From: Eledone cirrhosa
Lineage: Eukaryota
Length of the DNA: 64,000 nt
Assembly (NCBI GenBank): GCA_964016885.1
Contig: OZ024743.1
Location: forward strand, 167,338,001-167,402,000
Reading direction: 5' to 3'
Both the position numbers and the translations under genes were made by a program. The notes below the pieces were generated by a model. It ran no database searches and was not told the DNA's origin. It saw only the letters and a list, made by a program, of their open reading frames with translations. Of this stretch, positions 19,900 through 37,058 are shown in pieces. The stretch's first letter is position 1. Every line of letters begins with the position of its first letter.

Positions 19900-20440
19900 C
19901 TATTGGGGTGATAACCCGTTTAGTTTTGGTTTAAATTTGTTAAGGAATAGATTTTCTTTGTTTATTCTTTGTTGCTGTGTGAACGAATCTGAGCACTTGT
20001 AGAAGGGGAAGATTTTAAAGTTAGGTAGTGTCATTCCTGCGCAGTTCGCAATAAGGCTGCTCAAGGGGATTTTTCTTGTGTTAGCGTCCCGGATTTGTTG
20101 GCGGTGGATGGTCATTCTTTTGCGTAATGAGGTGCCCGTCTGTCCTATGTAGTTTGCACCCACCGCAAGTTATTGCGTAAATCAAGTTCTTGTTTTTTAC
20201 TGTAAATGTTTGGCCATCTTTAAATGTAAATTTTTGTCCTTCAGTGAGGTAGAGGCACGTTCCACAGTTTGTTCTACCACATTTGGTAACTGTAGGGTTG
20301 AGGATTGGTTTGGGTATATTTGGTCCAGTGAGAATGCGTTTTAGTGATTTGGGTTGTCTTTTACTTTTAAGGATCTTGTGTGTTTCAAGAATAGACTTCA
20401 TTTTTACATCTTTAAGTAGGATGGGGAGGTTTTTGTGTAG
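19900..20440 (-). mobile_element. PLE GIY-YIG endonuclease fragment
   Basis: KRQPKSLKRIL, CGRTNCGTC, NLIYAITC, then NYIGQT..LRKRMTIHRQQI...KPKLN after a frameshift. Confidence 0.82.
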
Positions 20441-22553: not shown

Positions 22554-23525
22554 AACAGATTATAGACATGATAATTAAAAATATAAATTAAAGCATAAAT
22601 AAATACCTCTGTAACTATATAACACATGTACAAATCCAAAGAGATGTTTCGCCAGTAATTTGTTGACAAAAATGGAATAACCTCGGTTCATCAGCGTGTG
22701 TAAGGCTATACATTTCAGAGAACACTAAGAGAATTTTAAAAGTGACTTTCCAGCTACACGTGGGAGAGAGAAGTCACATCTCTTTGGATTTGTACGTGTG
22801 TTATATAGTTATAGAGGTATTTATTTACGCTTTAATTTATATTTTTAATTATCATATCTATAGTCTGCCTTTCATAGGTTATAGATTCCATACACTGGTC
22901 GTTTTTTCCCTGTTTTATTGATAGCGCACTGTACATCTCTCTCTGGTGTGTTACCTTTTCAACATATTGTATTTTAAAGAGCTCAGGATTTCTTCTCCTT
23001 TGAGCACATTATTTACAGGGAATGGCGACGGCCTATGGCTCCGTTAATTTATCGTGATATTTCGCTCCTTATAACAGTCATTCTTATCTCTCTGTTTGGT
23101 TGAGCACACTTCTCTGAGTGGTTTTGGGCTGCCCTTTCTAACAGTTCGTCCCTCAGAGGCCACTGGTTCACTGCCCTTAAACAAGCTGTGACTTCTCTCT
23201 CCCATGTGTAGCTGGACAGTCACTTTTAAAATTCTCTTAGTGTTGTCTGAAATGTATAGCCTTACACGCGCTGATGAACCGAGGTTATTCTATTTCTGTC
23301 AACAAATTACTGGCGAAACATCTCTTTGGATTTGTACGTGTGTTATATAGTTATAGAGGTATTTATTTACGCTTTAATTTATATTTTTAATTATCGTGTC
23401 TATAGTCTGCCTTACACTGGTGGTTTTTTTCCCTGTTTTATTGATAGCGCACTGTATATCTCTCTCTGGTGTGTTACCTTTTCAACATATTGTATTTTAA
23501 AGAGCTCAGGATTTCTTAGCTGTTG
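22554..23525 (+). mobile_element. pLTR-like repeat: inverted copy plus partial tandem duplication
   Basis: 22554-22778 is the reverse complement of 23187-23409; 22779-22993 repeats at 23320-23516; decayed CTGATGA...GAAACATCTC motif at 23271-23325. Confidence 0.6.
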
Positions 23526-28149: not shown

Positions 28150-30650
28150 GTTTAATGAGGAGCCCCAAAAAATCAAGCATACAAAAATACACATACTCAC
28201 CACAACCACTCCAGATCACAACTCGCTACCCTAAGCAACCTCAGATCAAAGAACCTTGTATACCTCCGATCGGACAAGGAATAAGAGTTTTGTGTTATGA
28301 CCAGAGTGGCCTACAACAACCTAGCTCACGAACATGTCAACGACGGCACTCTACTTGGAAGTCACTGGAATTACACCCATGCTAATAGAGAACCGGATCA
28401 ACACCACCTGCACCAACATCTGCAACCGACGAAGGCTCCTAAAGAGATTTCGGTGCGATTATATAACGAGAAACAGCAGGCTGGCCAACTTCTACCACCT
28501 GATCAAAACCCACAAAGAAGGACCCGACCTGAAAATTAGACCTATTGTTTCCAGTGTTGAAGGACCATCTTATAACATTTCTTGGCTTCTGTCCAAGATT
28601 CTAAAGCCCCCATTGACAACCATCCCGGGCCACGTCTACAGCTTGGAGGAACTTGAAACTCTCAGATCCAACAAGTACGCCTTCAGCCCATGTGTAGTAT
28701 CCCTCTACACATCGGTACCTGCACTCCCAGCTATGGACATACTCACTGAATGTGTCGGTTCCAGCGATCTGGATTGTTTCGGCCTCACCACCACCGACAT
28801 CCACCAGCTCCTATCCATCATTGTCAACAATATCTTCAACTTCCTGGGACAAACCTGCCGACAGACCTCTGGACTACCCATGAGATCCAGCCTCTCGGGT
28901 TTACTGGCCATTTCATGTATGATGATACCAGAATACCAAGTATTCAGCTCCTGCGACACTTGCGCTTTCTTCACTAGAAGAATGTACACAATGCAGATCT
29001 TGGGTACACAAGAGGTGTAGTGTGATAGCAGACAAACTAACAGGAAGGGAAAACTTCATATGCAATAGATGTTCGGGGAAATTTGATAGTAGAAGTATCA
29101 GTGATAGGCAAATTTTTCAAAGGCAGGAAGGATCTATAGAGGTGGGTGATAGCTTCCGATACCTAGGTGATCAGATTAGCAAGGGAGGAAGATGCTCCAA
29201 GGCCATAGTGTATATAATAAGGACATGATGGAAGAAGTTTAGGAAGCTGCTTCCTCTATTGACAACAAAGGGTTTCTCCCTACGAACGAAAGGTCGGTTA
29301 TATGATGCAGCATAGTAGTGAGACATGGGCGACAACTGCAGAGGATATGTGACAGTTGGAGAGAAATAAAACAAGCATGCTCCAATGAATGTGCAATGTC
29401 AATGTGCATGAACGATCAAGCATAGGCGAGTTGAGAGTGAAACTGTGTGTAAGAGGGATAAACTGTAGTGTGTGGGAGAGGAGACTACGTTGGTATGGAT
29501 ATGTGATGTGCATGGAAGATGACCGCTGGGTGAAGAAGTGCTAAGAAATCTCAGTGCAAAGAAGACGTAGCAGAGGAAGACCACAAAAAACATGGGCAGA
29601 GGTAGTGAGAGCTGACCTCAGATTGCTGAAGCTCACAGAGGAGATGACGAAGGACCATGACAAGTGGAGAGATGCTGTGCTGAAAAGGACCCATCCCACC
29701 CTTGCAAGCAGGAGAAAGCGGACGTAAAATGACAATGATGATGATATGTGGATGATATCCTCACATCCACCAAGGAGAATACCAACAAGATTTTCGAATC
29801 TTTCAACAATGCTGACAATAACATCAAATTCAGCATCACAAATCCCACTGACTCCAGGTCCCTCACCCTACTTGATTTCCGACTGAACATCTCTGATAGT
29901 GGTGAAATCCACACCAATTTCTACTGCAAAGCAGCCAGCAGGGACCTGTTTGTTCTATAAATCTGCCATCCCCAGCAGCTCTAAAAGAGGGTACATCTTC
30001 AATGAAATCGCTCGCATATGCAACCGATGCAGCGAAGCTGCTAATAGAGCCACCCATATCAGACAATTCCACAGAATGTTAGAGATTAGTGGCTACCCAG
30101 CTTCCTATTCCACTCCACAAGAAAATCCCAGGCCCAGAAACCAGACCAACACAAACAACAGTTGCTTCTTCACGATCCCACATCCCAGTGAGGAAACCAC
30201 CAACGCCATACGCAAAACCATCAGGAGAGAGGGCCTCAGTATCAAACTAGCTCACTCTGAACCTTCCCTGTGAAGATGCCTCTCCACAAGACAACCCCTC
30301 AACGAGGATAACGGATGCATCCTAGCCAATTGCCATATCCACAACACCAATTGTTGCCTACGTACCTACGTAGTATACAGGCTAGAATGTAACAGGTGCA
30401 ATCTATTGTACATAGGCAGCACTATTCGACCGTTACGTCTCCGTATTAAAGACCATGTTAACACCAACTCTTCTTCCTTCCACAAACACATCATCAAATG
30501 CAGAAGCCGGGACAACAACATTACCACCACAGTTTAGTTACCGAACGCAGTATAGGCACGCTGAGAATTAAGGAAACACTCTTGATCAAGTAATTAAAAC
30601 CTAGGGTCAATAATCGAATAGAAAGAAGTGCACCAGAATGGTTAATTTAA
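28150..30650 (+). mobile_element. Decayed Penelope-like element split by an RTE insertion
   Basis: FYHLIKTHK..KIRPIVS, SLYTSVP, QTSGLPM; resumes with VDDI near 29748, LTLLD, then VVYRLEC..C..LYIGST.R near 30370. Confidence 0.82.
28995..29743 (+). mobile_element. Decayed RTE 3' part inserted in the PLE
   Basis: FICNRC...IEVGDSFRYLGD; homologous to 10321-10853; (GAT)n tail. Confidence 0.85.
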
Positions 30651-30789: not shown

Positions 30790-31957
30790 GAGAAGAAATT
30801 CCAAACTTGGAAGCAGGGACTAGAAAGAAAGGGTCTCAGTCAACCTGACAAAGACTAAGGTTCTTGTAAGTAGACGAGAAAACAGAACCCAGATCCCCTC
30901 AGGGAAATGGCCTTGCTCAGTATGTAGGAAAGGTGTAGGTAGGAACTCTATTCTCTACCCCAAATGCAAACAATGGGTACACAAGAGATGTAGCGGGATC
31001 TCAGGAAGCTTAATTAAGAATGTAGGCTTCACATGTAGCAGCTGTGCTAGGACACCAAACAGCCACAGGAAACAAGTACCACCAATCTCTGGGAGGGCTC
31101 TGTAGAAACAGTAGACGGCTTCTGCTACCTAGGTGACCGAATTAGCAGCGGAGGTGGGTGTTCAGAAAGTACAATAACTAGGGTGAGAACGGGATGGAAG
31201 AAGTTCAGGGAGTTACTGCCACTGCTAGCTGCAAAAGGCTTTTCCCTCAAAATGAAAGGCAGACTGTATGATGCGTGTATCCGAACAGCAATGTTACATG
31301 GTAGTGAGACCTGGGCGCTGAATGTGGAAGACTTGCGTAGATTAGAAAGAAACGAAGCCTGCATGCTCCAATGGATGTGTAATAGTAATATACGCGAGCA
31401 GCAAAGCATAAATGAATTGAGAGAGAGACTGAGCATAAGAGGAATCAAATGCTGTGTGCAGGAGAGGCGGTTGCGTTGGTATGGACATGTGATGCATATG
31501 AAGGATGCATAAAAAGGTGCAGAGTTCTAGAAGTTGATGGAAACTGCGGAGTGGGGAGACCCAAGAAGACCTGGGATGAGGTGATAAAAGCCGACCTTAC
31601 CCAATTAAACCGCTGGCGTCGCGCAGTAATACAGAATACCTGACCCCCCACGGGTACAAGCTGAAGCATATAGACAATATTCCCCCCCACCCGCCCACTG
31701 CAAAGTGGTCGTGGAAGGGCCACGGCAAAAAAGCACCCAGCCCACACTGTAAAGTGGACATGTAGGCGCCACGTAAAAAGCACCCAGCACTCACTGTAAA
31801 TGAGGTTGGTGTTAGGAAGGGCATCCAGCTGTAGAAATCAAGCCAGATCAGTTCCTGTATGAGCAAGGCATGGTCAGCCGACCGGACACTGCCCACAACA
31901 GGACAACCCGTCTAACCCATGCTAGCGTGGAAGAACGGACGTAAAACGATAATGATG
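30790..31957 (+). mobile_element. 5'-truncated RTE copy (third subfamily)
   Basis: [37 protein letters not shown]; 3' UTR with AGGAAGGGCATCCAGC. Confidence 0.88.
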
Positions 31958-32499
31958 TATTCGCACACGCCTTTCAATACATAAACTTTCATTCATGCAC
32001 ACACATACATACATCCCATTAAGCACACTTACATTCATGCACACACATGCATATATCGTACACTTTTTCCCAGACATTTCACAATACACACACTTGAAAT
32101 TTTAATGTCTTTTCATTACATTTAACTTAAATCTGCCATCCTAACAACTCATCTCCGATCGATCTTTTAAGACCTTCACAGGGATACTGGACCGGACACT
32201 GCCCACAACAGGACAACCCGTCTAACCCATGCTAGCGTGGAAGAACGGACGTAAAACGATAATGATGTATTCGCACACGCCTTTCAATACATAAACTTTC
32301 ATTCATGCACACACATACATACATCCCATTAAGCACACTTACATTCATGCACACACATGCATATATCGTACACTTTTTCCCAGACATTTCACAATACACA
32401 CACTTGAAATTTTAATGTCTTTTCATTACATTTAACTTAAATCTGCCATCCTAACAACTCATCTCCGATCGATCTTTTAAGACCTTCACAGGGATACTG
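31880..32499. repeat. Exact tandem duplication, 2 x 310 bp
   Basis: 31880-32189 equals 32190-32499; spans RTE tail plus flank. Confidence 0.92.
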
Positions 32500-32838
32500 C
32501 CTTGATAATGGTTTTTTAAACCTGAAAATATTTGGGATTATTAAATTTGCTACGGTAAGATTCTATTGTTATCTTGGCACCGTTAATTTTCTAATGCATT
32601 GTATGGTTTTAAAAATTATTTAAATTTATATATCCTATTCAACAATACTTCAAGCAAACTACAACACTCTGATATATATATATATATATATGAATGTATA
32701 TATATATATATATATGAATATAGACATAGAATATTCGAAAATATTCTGTATGTTTATAATAAACATTTTGAAGACCTAATCGCTATAGAATAGAATACGT
32801 CACGTATTACAATTAGATTCTCGATAAAAGCAAGGGAA

Positions 32839-34431
32839 GTAATCTACGCGTTTCATTCTTGTTAGAAATCATCAGGACTACATATCCAGTGCTTTTATCG
32901 AGAATGACACAGCTAGAGACTTATAGAATACTTAGCTGTGTACAGTAACTGGTTTGAAAGAGCGGTTGCCGGTCCGGCAGAAATTAGAAATTGGAATAAA
33001 TGCTCTGAAATAGCGATATATATGTGAATATAGACATAGAATATTCGAAAATATTCTGTATGTTTATAATAAACATTTTGAAGACCTAATCGCTATAGAA
33101 TAGAATACGTCACGTATTACAATTAGATTCTCGATAAAAGCAAGGGAAGTAATCTACGCGTTTCATTCTTGTTAGAAATCATCAGGACTACATATCCAGT
33201 GCTTTTATCGAGAATGACACAGCTAGAGACTTATAGAATACTTAGCTGTGTACAGTAACTGGTTTGAAAGAGCGGTTGCCGGTCCGGCAGAAATTAGAAA
33301 TTGGAATAAATGCTCTGAAATAGCGATATATATGTGAATATAGACATAGAATATTCGAAAATATTCTGTATGTTTATAATAAACATTTTGAAGACCTAAT
33401 CGCTATAGAATAGAATACGTCACGTATTACAATTAGATTCTCGATAAAAGCAAGGGAAGTAATCTACGCGTTTCATTCTTGTTAGAAATCATCAGGACTA
33501 CATATCCAGTGCTTTTATCGAGAATGACACAGCTAGAGACTTATAGAATACTTAGCTGTGTACAGTAACTGGTTTGAAAGAGCGGTTGCCGGTCCGGCAG
33601 AAATTAGAAATTGGAATAAATGCTCTGAAATAGCGATATATATGTGAATATAGACATAGAATATTCGAAAATATTCTGTATGTTTATAATAAACATTTTG
33701 AAGACCTAATCGCTATAGAATAGAATACGTCACGTATTACAATTAGATTCTCGATAAAAGCAAGGGAAGTAATCTACGCGTTTCATTCTTGTTAGAAATC
33801 ATCAGGACTACATATCCAGTGCTTTTATCGAGAATGACACAGCTAGAGACTTATAGAATACTTAGCTGTGTACAGTAACTGGTTTGAAAGAGCGGTTGCC
33901 GGTCCGGCAGAAATTAGAAATTGGAATAAATGCTCTGAAATAGCGATATATATGTGAATATAGACATAGAATATTCGAAAATATTCTGTATGTTTATAAT
34001 AAACATTTTGAAGACCTAATCGCTATAGAATAGAATACGTCACGTATTACAATTAGATTCTCGATAAAAGCAAGGGAAGTAATCTACGCGTTTCATTCTT
34101 GTTAGAAATCATCAGGACTACATATCCAGTGCTTTTATCGAGAATGACACAGCTAGAGACTTATAGAATACTTAGCTGTGTACAGTAACTGGTTTGAAAG
34201 AGCGGTTGCCGGTCCGGCAGAAATTAGAAATTGGAATAAATGCTCTGAAATAGCGATATATATGTGAATATAGACATAGAATATTCGAAAATATTCTGTA
34301 TGTTTATAATAAACATTTTGAAGACCTAATCGCTATAGAATAGAATACGTCACGTATTACAATTAGATTCTCGATAAAAGCAAGGGAAGTAATCTACGCG
34401 TTTCATTCTTGTTAGAAATCATCAGGACTAC
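32839..34431 (-). ncRNA. Six type I hammerhead ribozymes (left coordinates 32839, 33149, 33459, 33769, 34079, 34389; 43 nt each)
   Basis: Reverse complement of the motif at 34550-34592. Confidence 0.9.
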
Positions 34432-34549
34432 ATATCCAGTGCTTTTATCGAGAATGACACAGCTAGAGACTTATAGAATACTTAGCTGTACACAGCTAAG
34501 TATTCTATAAGTCTCTAGCTGTGTCATTCTCGATAAAAGCACTGGATAT

Positions 34550-36452
34550 GTAGTCCTGATGATTTCTAACAAGAATGAAACGCGTAGATTACTTCCCTTG
34601 CTTTTATCGAGAATCTAATTGTAATACGTGACGTATTCTATTCTATAGCGATTAGGTCTTCAAAATGTTTATTATAAACATACAGAATATTTTCGAATAT
34701 TCTATGTCTATATTCACATATATATCGCTATTTCAGAGCATTTATTCCAATTTCTAATTTCTGCCGGACCGGCAACCGCTCTTTCAAACCAGTTACTGTA
34801 CACAGCTAAGTATTCTATAAGTCTCTAGCTGTGTCATTCTCGATAAAAGCACTGGATATGTAGTCCTGATGATTTCTAACAAGAATGAAACGCGTAGATT
34901 ACTTCCCTTGCTTTTATCGAGAATCTAATTGTAATACGTGACGTATTCTATTCTATAGCGATTAGGTCTTCAAAATGTTTATTATAAACATACAGAATAT
35001 TTTCGAATATTCTATGTCTATATTCACATATATATCGCTATTTCAGAGCATTTATTCCAATTTCTAATTTCTGCCGGACCGGCAACCGCTCTTTCAAACC
35101 AGTTACTGTACACAGCTAAGTATTCTATAAGTCTCTAGCTGTGTCATTCTCGATAAAAGCACTGGATATGTAGTCCTGATGATTTCTAACAAGAATGAAA
35201 CGCGTAGATTACTTCCCTTGCTTTTATCGAGAATCTAATTGTAATACGTGACGTATTCTATTCTATAGCGATTAGGTCTTCAAAATGTTTATTATAAACA
35301 TACAGAATATTTTCGAATATTCTATGTCTATATTCACATATATATCGCTATTTCAGAGCATTTATTCCAATTTCTAATTTCTGCCGGACCGGCAACCGCT
35401 CTTTCAAACCAGTTACTGTACACAGCTAAGTATTCTATAAGTCTCTAGCTGTGTCATTCTCGATAAAAGCACTGGATATGTAGTCCTGATGATTTCTAAC
35501 AAGAATGAAACGCGTAGATTACTTCCCTTGCTTTTATCGAGAATCTAATTGTAATACGTGACGTATTCTATTCTATAGCGATTAGGTCTTCAAAATGTTT
35601 ATTATAAACATACAGAATATTTTCGAATATTCTATGTCTATATTCACATATATATCGCTATTTCAGAGCATTTATTCCAATTTCTAATTTCTGCCGGACC
35701 GGCAACCGCTCTTTCAAACCAGTTACTGTACACAGCTAAGTATTCTATAAGTCTCTAGCTGTGTCATTCTCGATAAAAGCACTGGATATGTAGTCCTGAT
35801 GATTTCTAACAAGAATGAAACGCGTAGATTACTTCCCTTGCTTTTATCGAGAATCTAATTGTAATACGTGACGTATTCTATTCTATAGCGATTAGGTCTT
35901 CAAAATGTTTATTATAAACATACAGAATATTTTCGAATATTCTATGTCTATATTCACATATATATCGCTATTTCAGAGCATTTATTCCAATTTCTAATTT
36001 CTGCCGGACCGGCAACCGCTCTTTCAAACCAGTTACTGTACACAGCTAAGTATTCTATAAGTCTCTAGCTGTGTCATTCTCGATAAAAGCACTGGATATG
36101 TAGTCCTGATGATTTCTAACAAGAATGAAACGCGTAGATTACTTCCCTTGCTTTTATCGAGAATCTAATTGTAATACGTGACGTATTCTATTCTATAGCG
36201 ATTAGGTCTTCAAAATGTTTATTATAAACATACAGAATATTTTCGAATATTCTATGTCTATATTCACATATATATCGCTATTTCAGAGCATTTATTCCAA
36301 TTTCTAATTTCTGCCGGACCGGCAACCGCTCTTTCAAACCAGTTACTGTACACAGCTAAGTATTCTATAAGTCTCTAGCTGTGTCATTCTCGATAAAAGC
36401 ACTGGATATGTAGTCCTGATGATTTCTAACAAGAATGAAACGCGTAGATTAC
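34550..36452 (+). ncRNA. Seven type I hammerhead ribozymes (starts 34550, 34860, 35170, 35480, 35790, 36100, 36410)
   Basis: GTAGTC-CTGATGA-TTTCT(AACA)AGAAT-GAAA-CGCG-TA-GATTAC; stem I extended by a 16-bp helix ATTCTCGATAAAAGCA/TGCTTTTATCGAGAAT; predicted cleavage after GUA (34586). Confidence 0.92.
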
Positions 36453-36631
36453 TTCCCTTGCTTTTATCGAGAATCTAATTGTAATACGTGACGTATTCTA
36501 TTCTATAGCGATTAGGTCTTCAAAATGTTTATTATAAACATACAGAATATTTTCGAATATTCTATGTCTATATTCACATATATATCGCTATTTCAGAGCA
36601 TTTATTCCAATTTATATATATATATATATAT

Positions 36632-37037
36632 GAATGTATATATAGTATATTTGGCAATATACTGTATGCTTAATTAAAAGCATTTTGAAGACCTTGTGTT
36701 ATTATTTTAAAGTAGTGACTATGTCACTTCTTTTTTCAACAAACAAAGGGAGATAAGCTGACAGATCTGTTTCACACTGTTGGTGATCATCAGAGCTATA
36801 AGAATCCAACATTTATAATTTTCAACAGACAAAGCGAGTGCTAAGCTCTGATGATTACCAACAGTATGAAACAGATCTGTCAGCTTATCTCTCCCTTTGT
36901 TTGTTGAAAAAAGAAGTAAGTGACATAGTCACTACTTTAAAATAATAGCGCAAGGTCTTCAAAATGCTTTAAATTAAGCATACAGTATATTGCCAAATAT
37001 ACTATGTATACATCGCTATTTCAGAGCACCAATTCTA
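36632..37037 (+). mobile_element. Sister retrozyme-like fold-back element with two hammerheads (36842-36887 +, 36754-36797 -)
   Basis: TAAGCT-CTGATGA-TTAC(CAACA)GTAT-GAAA-CAGATCTG-TC-AGCTTA; 36632-36797 is an inverted copy of ~36844-37012; 3' tail homologous to the 310-mer. Confidence 0.85.
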
Positions 37038-37058
37038 ATATATATATATATATATATA

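Follow-up and report, generated by a model that had tools for sequence, protein, structure and literature searches.

The window, by which we mean the whole stretch of 64,000 nucleotides of Eledone cirrhosa DNA analysed here, contains a 3.9-kb element composed of 310-bp units with a period of 310, distributed over two arms of opposite orientation. The left arm (32715..34489, minus strand) comprises 5.73 units with the RNA-sense 3′ end leftward and stops at unit position 130, in a region referred to as site A, where TATATTCA is followed by TATATA. The right arm (34486..36613, plus strand) comprises 6.86 units with the RNA-sense 3′ end rightward and stops at unit position 167, in site B, where ATTCCAATTT is followed by ATATAT; this B end lies 37 nt past A and corresponds to a PLE-type tail. 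Unit positions are counted from the predicted hammerhead cut after 34586, position 1 being 34587, and the unit delimited by two successive predicted cuts, which is also the predicted circle, spans 34587..34896 on the plus strand. The arms meet at a head-to-head junction (34486..34491) made up of a 4-nt microhomology, CTGT (34486-34489), and an apparent 2-nt axis, AC (34490-34491), on either side of which 32715-34489 and 34492-36266 form a perfect palindrome with arms of 1,775 bp (~3.55 kb palindromic), which the right arm outruns by 347 nt. A preliminary description of this DNA had reported identical 310-bp monomers, six on the minus and seven on the plus strand around the 2-nt axis. Both points were borne out: neighbouring units are free of mismatches within each arm, and 13 type I hammerhead cores were found, six minus and seven plus, with CTGATGA at 34556+310n on the plus strand (7 copies) and in 6 copies on the minus strand. 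The element is non-coding, with no frame of 150 aa or more and ~33% GC; no PLE protein matches were found over it, nor the ORF with RT and GIY-YIG that marks an autonomous PLE.

The first plus-strand type I hammerhead (34526..34614) has its CUGAUGA core at 34556, a 16-bp stem I extension and a predicted cut after 34586 (GUA), and recurs every 310 nt. The predicted fold pairs GUAGUC with GAUUAC in stem I and UUCU with AGAA in stem II, with a U-U at the base of stem II, and the 16-bp extension helix is predicted as well (z -5.68), so that the complete type I hammerhead earlier proposed for each unit was confirmed computationally. Additional hairpins suggested for the monomer were also recovered, the 310-nt monomer folding more stably than shuffles (z -4.60) with GCCGG and UACGU hairpins included. 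Stem III (AC-GC-GU, with a 2-nt loop) forms between two molecules in cofold, and hammerheads with such a short stem III are reported to cut as dimers. No Rfam family matched the window element at gathering score; the match to Hammerhead_HH9 was weak (E 0.066), and matches to miRNA families, below gathering score, were rejected as generic long-hairpin hits. Each unit is predicted to carry a self-cutting RNA.

Several features surrounding the array had been overlooked in the preliminary description, as had its family context. A target-site duplication frames the element, with a left copy at 32674..32704 (plus strand), reading (AT)9-GAATG-(TA)4 and separated from the element by 10 extra nt of TA, and a right copy at 36614..36644 (plus strand), which overlaps the A end of an older neighbour. 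This neighbour (36631..37039) is a head-to-head element of a sister family, with one hammerhead per arm (36793 minus, 36848 plus) and its own A and B ends. The (AT)9-GAATG-(TA)4 sequence is the end of this sister element, into which the window element was inserted. On the left side, unrelated, repeat-derived sequence at 31880..32499 (plus strand) forms a perfect 310-bp tandem duplication of the same period as the array, a possible assembly artefact. Elsewhere in the window, another inverted repeat was noticed at ~22600-23520, with hammerhead-like cores at 22694 (minus) and 23271 (plus), and further hammerhead-like cores within TA-flanked elements at 2334-2980, 17048 and 17637. PLE-like protein fragments lie at 19912-20440, 28325-30623 and 14864-16798, LINE-like RT frames at 3368-5971 and 53651-56365, and a 53-bp tandem array of 37.8 copies with 94% matches at 42717-44719.

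A genome search with the 310-bp unit, one of the checks that had been proposed, recovered at least 13 loci at 99-100% identity (14 candidates scored). Exact end patterns matched 1,232 times genome-wide for one end type and 1,049 times for the other (reversed controls 0), the first 100 of the 1,232 matches corresponding to 78 loci, and exact core matches numbered 4,584 (reversed control 0). From these pattern counts and the exact B165 end found in 23 of 40 closed loci, the family is estimated at ~2,000 loci. The palindromic layout was counted in a sample of 73 loci, made up of the 13 unit-search loci, 2 loci picked by their core and, from contig C1, the first 40 additional A-end loci and 18 further B-end loci, and therefore ordered by contig, mostly C1, rather than random. 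In this sample 64 loci run minus-then-plus, that is head-to-head with the 3′ ends outward, while seven are single-armed and two unresolved; L066 was assigned from the strands of its core matches. The preliminary description knew of no whole retrozyme concatemer reported as a giant hairpin; a unique hairpin is not supported, inversion being the family norm. Copies are dispersed, with target duplications longer than 4 bp (11 bp at L161, up to 31 bp in the window). Units of non-LTR retrozymes are tandem, 150-450 bp long, low in GC and non-coding, and the 310-bp unit at ~33% GC agrees with this description. By these sequence features, and as first suggested from its 13 hammerhead cores, the window element is a young member of the metazoan non-LTR retrozymes. 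In a group of subfamilies (L055, L061, L088, L091, L086), a one-base insertion 2-3 nt past the predicted cut is fixed in all units of both arms. The two arms of L067 are separated by 272 nt of unrelated sequence (1449-1720), which may have been captured where the arms joined.

The outer ends of the arms fall either at site A (unit positions 125-139) or at site B (157-172, with 165 the commonest), ~35 nt apart, in bins that were set by the analyst. All 54 closed inverted loci have one A and one B end, and neither AA nor BB pairs were found. Of these loci, 31 had been chosen by their A end, 12 by their B end and 11 irrespective of ends, so that in 43 of the 54, where sampling fixed one end, only the other end tests the rule. 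The window locus is ordinary within its family, and what stands out is this family-wide A/B rule. The flanks are nearly always (TA)n, and within pure (TA)n most target duplications cannot be made out. One could be read in 3 of the 54 loci, namely the window, L161 (11 bp) and L057 (TA-rich), while mismatched flank pairs, used as control, gave 2 in 2,862; the L057 case may be due to chance, given its TA-richness. The layout is that of a non-autonomous PLE, tandem and inverted, with a one-sided tail of 30-40 bp and a microsatellite target. The combination of one A and one B end with an inverted 5′-truncated copy and a one-sided tail is a PLE signature, and the PLE-type insertion suggested earlier is supported, the (TA)n targets and the target duplication being PLE features as well.

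The same genome has autonomous elements that combine RT, a CxxC linker and GIY-YIG, and these too (L097, L109, L100, L035) have inverted ends, a tail on one side and flanks of (TA)n. Long open frames encoding these three features lie at L097:1354-6664, L109:2769-6016 and L100:989-4737 and in L095; L109 and L100 are palindromes of 3.2-3.8 kb, and the tail of L097 ends in CATTTTCCAAT, like site B of the 310-bp family. The GIY-YIG search returned 10,597 candidates, and 38 loci of the 150 listed were examined, whose C-terminal sequences suggest at least seven families. None of these 38 loci held an autonomous PLE with the A-B region, an A-B match at L036 being a separate sister-family insertion and not shared PLE sequence, and no PLE ORF was attached to a sister-family element in 30 loci; no sequence link of the 310-bp family to an autonomous PLE family was found across these two sets. 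The sister family (window 36631-37039 and L113-L142) is older, with copies ~90% alike, and has the same A/B ends and head-to-head layout. It matches the A-B region at 73-81%, and its stem I and stem III sequences differ, the fold being kept. A third small hammerhead family (L103:7076-7202, L108:5198-5326, L100:183, L097:9245), ~74% like unit positions 226-305, forms 130-bp palindromes that are extended on one side and lie in (TA)n, and the hammerhead-like type at window position 2794 recurs in L044, L097, L108 and L109.

The reading that we favour, and hold to be reasonably probable, is that a Penelope-like RT/endonuclease primes from both nicked target strands on the predicted 310-nt circular RNA. 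Hammerheads would cut a read-through RNA, probably as dimers, into monomers, which would circularise. A PLE protein dimer would then bind the A-B region and nick both (TA)n strands, one 3′-OH starting at B and the other at A, and each RT would go round the template with strand displacement and come to a stop independently of the other, both on one RNA molecule or on one each. The cDNA 3′ ends would finally anneal via a few bases or be joined with filler, and the gaps would be filled. The outward position of the 3′ ends means that an arm can be read as a cDNA extended towards the junction from one strand of the target; under double priming, in which both strands prime, each arm would be a first-strand cDNA.

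That the inversion in the window is a read fold-back or an assembly artefact appears very improbable. Long palindromes assemble poorly, and no sequence bridged the axis among the short contigs and RAD reads from 4 runs overlaid on 31500-35100. The perfect flank duplication, moreover, lies 215 bp from the array; contig depth is not doubled there, with 8.0, 8.0 and 7.9 in three records inside it versus 7.05 in one record across its end, summed depths not being copy numbers. This duplication is absent from 54 other stretches, which rejects it as a family trait, and is a probable one-unit mis-join, in which case the unit count of the window may be off by one. However, a fold-back chimera is made unlikely by the target duplication that frames the element, by flanks that are not mirror images, by arms that stop at different fixed sites and by the 63 other loci that show the layout with other junctions. 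Quite unlikely, in our view, is a snap-back in which one target-primed cDNA folds back and copies itself, the other fixed site then capturing its end. In the accessible text of PMC3846280 the inverted layout is attributed to self-priming with an antisense template, and snap-back had also been proposed in the preliminary description. The earlier proposal stands insofar as the window junction fits exactly a plus-arm cDNA folded back at CTGT-GT-ACAG, but this junction fits the annealing of two cDNAs through CTGT equally and cannot tell the two apart. The exact junction sequence of the window occurs once in the genome, and a snap-back hotspot at CTGT-AC-ACAG was rejected on this ground; near-perfect axes, at 4 of 45 junctions versus 3.0 expected, are at chance level, with no excess of short loops. 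Snap-back further requires a second arm no longer than the first, yet in 54 loci (the complex L027 left out, L151 included) the A arm was longer by >310 nt in 21 and the B arm by >350 nt in 18 (rho 0.10), and equal arms were not in excess. This test is weakened by L030, L024 and L031, where a variant recurs at regular unit spacing in one arm, which shows that some arms were lengthened later or mis-assembled, and the window arms could themselves be symmetric if the flank duplication marks a one-unit mis-join. Filler was found at 15 of 45 junctions, and among the 30 filler-free ones 10 have microhomology of at least 3 nt versus 6.8% expected (p 2e-5), an enrichment that also fits snap-back. Both arms carry the same haplotype in 33 of the 36 loci with both arms of at least 330 nt (15 haplotypes; permutation mean 5.1, maximum 14), which traces them to a single RNA or a single clonal pool and is likewise expected under snap-back. 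L083 and the symmetric L070 fit it as well; against it, the left arms of L072 and L094 are mosaic and the right arms are without the mirrored pattern. Because junction phase is uniform (Rayleigh p ~0.6, n=45), either arm may be the longer, haplotypes are shared and the window axis is unique, snap-back is not the family rule, and the earlier proposal is not supported as a general mechanism.

The same loci bear on the nature of the template. Rare variants (22A, 259G, 158G and one-base insertions) are fixed in every unit of both arms, none of the 90 inner ends lies within 5 nt of the predicted cut versus 2.9 expected, the 658 cut-site junctions include 4 minority forms, and in outer-end register the other arm lacks 30 of the 32 sporadic bases. 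Taken together, these results point to a template of one unit, most simply a circle, and support the one-unit intermediate put forward earlier as an inference; judged from these genomic copies, the template was probably a small circular RNA. RT jumping between cleaved linear monomers is disfavoured by the lack of pile-up or scars at the cut site. Double priming might also have used linear multimer transcripts that had not been cleaved, unequal exchange having lengthened the arrays afterwards and no circle being needed, a possibility that we consider unlikely. Hammerhead cleavage is dispensable in vitro for PLE insertion, according to the accessible text of PMC11167929, and 8 of 9 Xenopus retrozyme dimers failed to cleave in that of 10.64898/2026.07.22.740005. 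The periodic variants of L030, L024 and L031 agree with such transcripts, as does L083, whose identical sporadic base in the corresponding unit of both arms is more easily explained by a linear multimer or by snap-back than by a circle. In contrast, the fixation of rare variants in all units of both arms needs a one-unit bottleneck, sporadic bases are for the most part not common to both arms, and 72 of 80 arms exceed one unit, in copies that are 99-100% identical. Arm lengths that deviate from a pure exponential (p 0.03) speak against the favoured reading, as does the failure to find an autonomous PLE with the A-B region among the 38 GIY-YIG and 30 sister-family loci.

As described in the accessible portions of PMC7229834 and 10.64898/2026.07.22.740005, metazoan non-LTR retrozymes similarly consist of non-coding ~300-nt tandem units of low GC, with one type I hammerhead each and a self-paired fold, in genomes that also contain PLEs. 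They differ in that head-to-tail arrays are described and circRNA is demonstrated there, whereas the present family is known from genome sequence; a word search of the available text of both found neither inverted arrays nor tails nor fixed ends described. Endonuclease-positive PLEs, in the available parts of PMC8557442, PMC3846280 and PMC11167929, share an inverted 5′-truncated head-to-head copy, a tail at one end (30-40 bp), (TA)n, a target duplication and internal RT starts, and the first two of these sources already describe the tandem/inverted layout for autonomous PLEs. Unlike them, the 310-bp family is without an ORF, has two multi-unit arms (up to 19.6 units), is inverted in about nine of ten loci and shows a strict A/B pairing that could be quantified. 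Non-autonomous Chlamys elements such as MRC1, in the same accessible text of PMC8557442, are likewise non-autonomous PLE derivatives with multicopy insertions, but they are head-to-tail, resemble an autonomous family at the 3′ end and belong to a clade without canonical hammerheads. LINE-1 twin priming is another parallel, in which both target nicks prime cDNA and a head-to-head microhomology junction and a target duplication result. It is reportedly a minority event, with the second primer at variable internal sites and arms that barely overlap. In the 310-bp family, by contrast, each of the two start sites is fixed and the overlap of the arms extends over kilobases. Our literature search found no description of inverted retrozyme arrays or of PLE twin priming, which subscription papers and supplements may contain.

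The retrozyme kind is thus known, as is the inverted layout for autonomous PLEs, and the family amounts to a natural experiment, on a large scale, on the formation of PLE inversions. How PLEs come to insert in tandem/inverted form with a tail at one end is, according to the accessible text of PMC8557442, undefined. A PLE studied in vitro cleaves both strands as well as extending them, with two internal starts bounding the tail, and is predicted to be dimeric, later steps being open (PMC11167929, available text). The chances seem to us evenly balanced that near-obligate double priming yields inverted PLE insertions in general, a protein dimer using both target nicks, one at each of the two fixed RNA start sites on either side of the tail, which on a retrozyme circle would give two independent rolling-circle cDNAs placed head-to-head. 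PLE mobilisation of retrozymes has rested on co-occurrence and on pLTR similarity. Some 2,000 (an estimate) near-identical young insertions of one short RNA offer a large sample for separating self-priming from double priming, and the family suggests a defined RNA and target for in vitro work. Each of the many kilobase palindromes in this single genome may also be a source of dsRNA and of instability. If true, double priming would account for the PLE tail and the inversion in one step and would give direct genomic evidence of retrozyme circles as PLE substrates.
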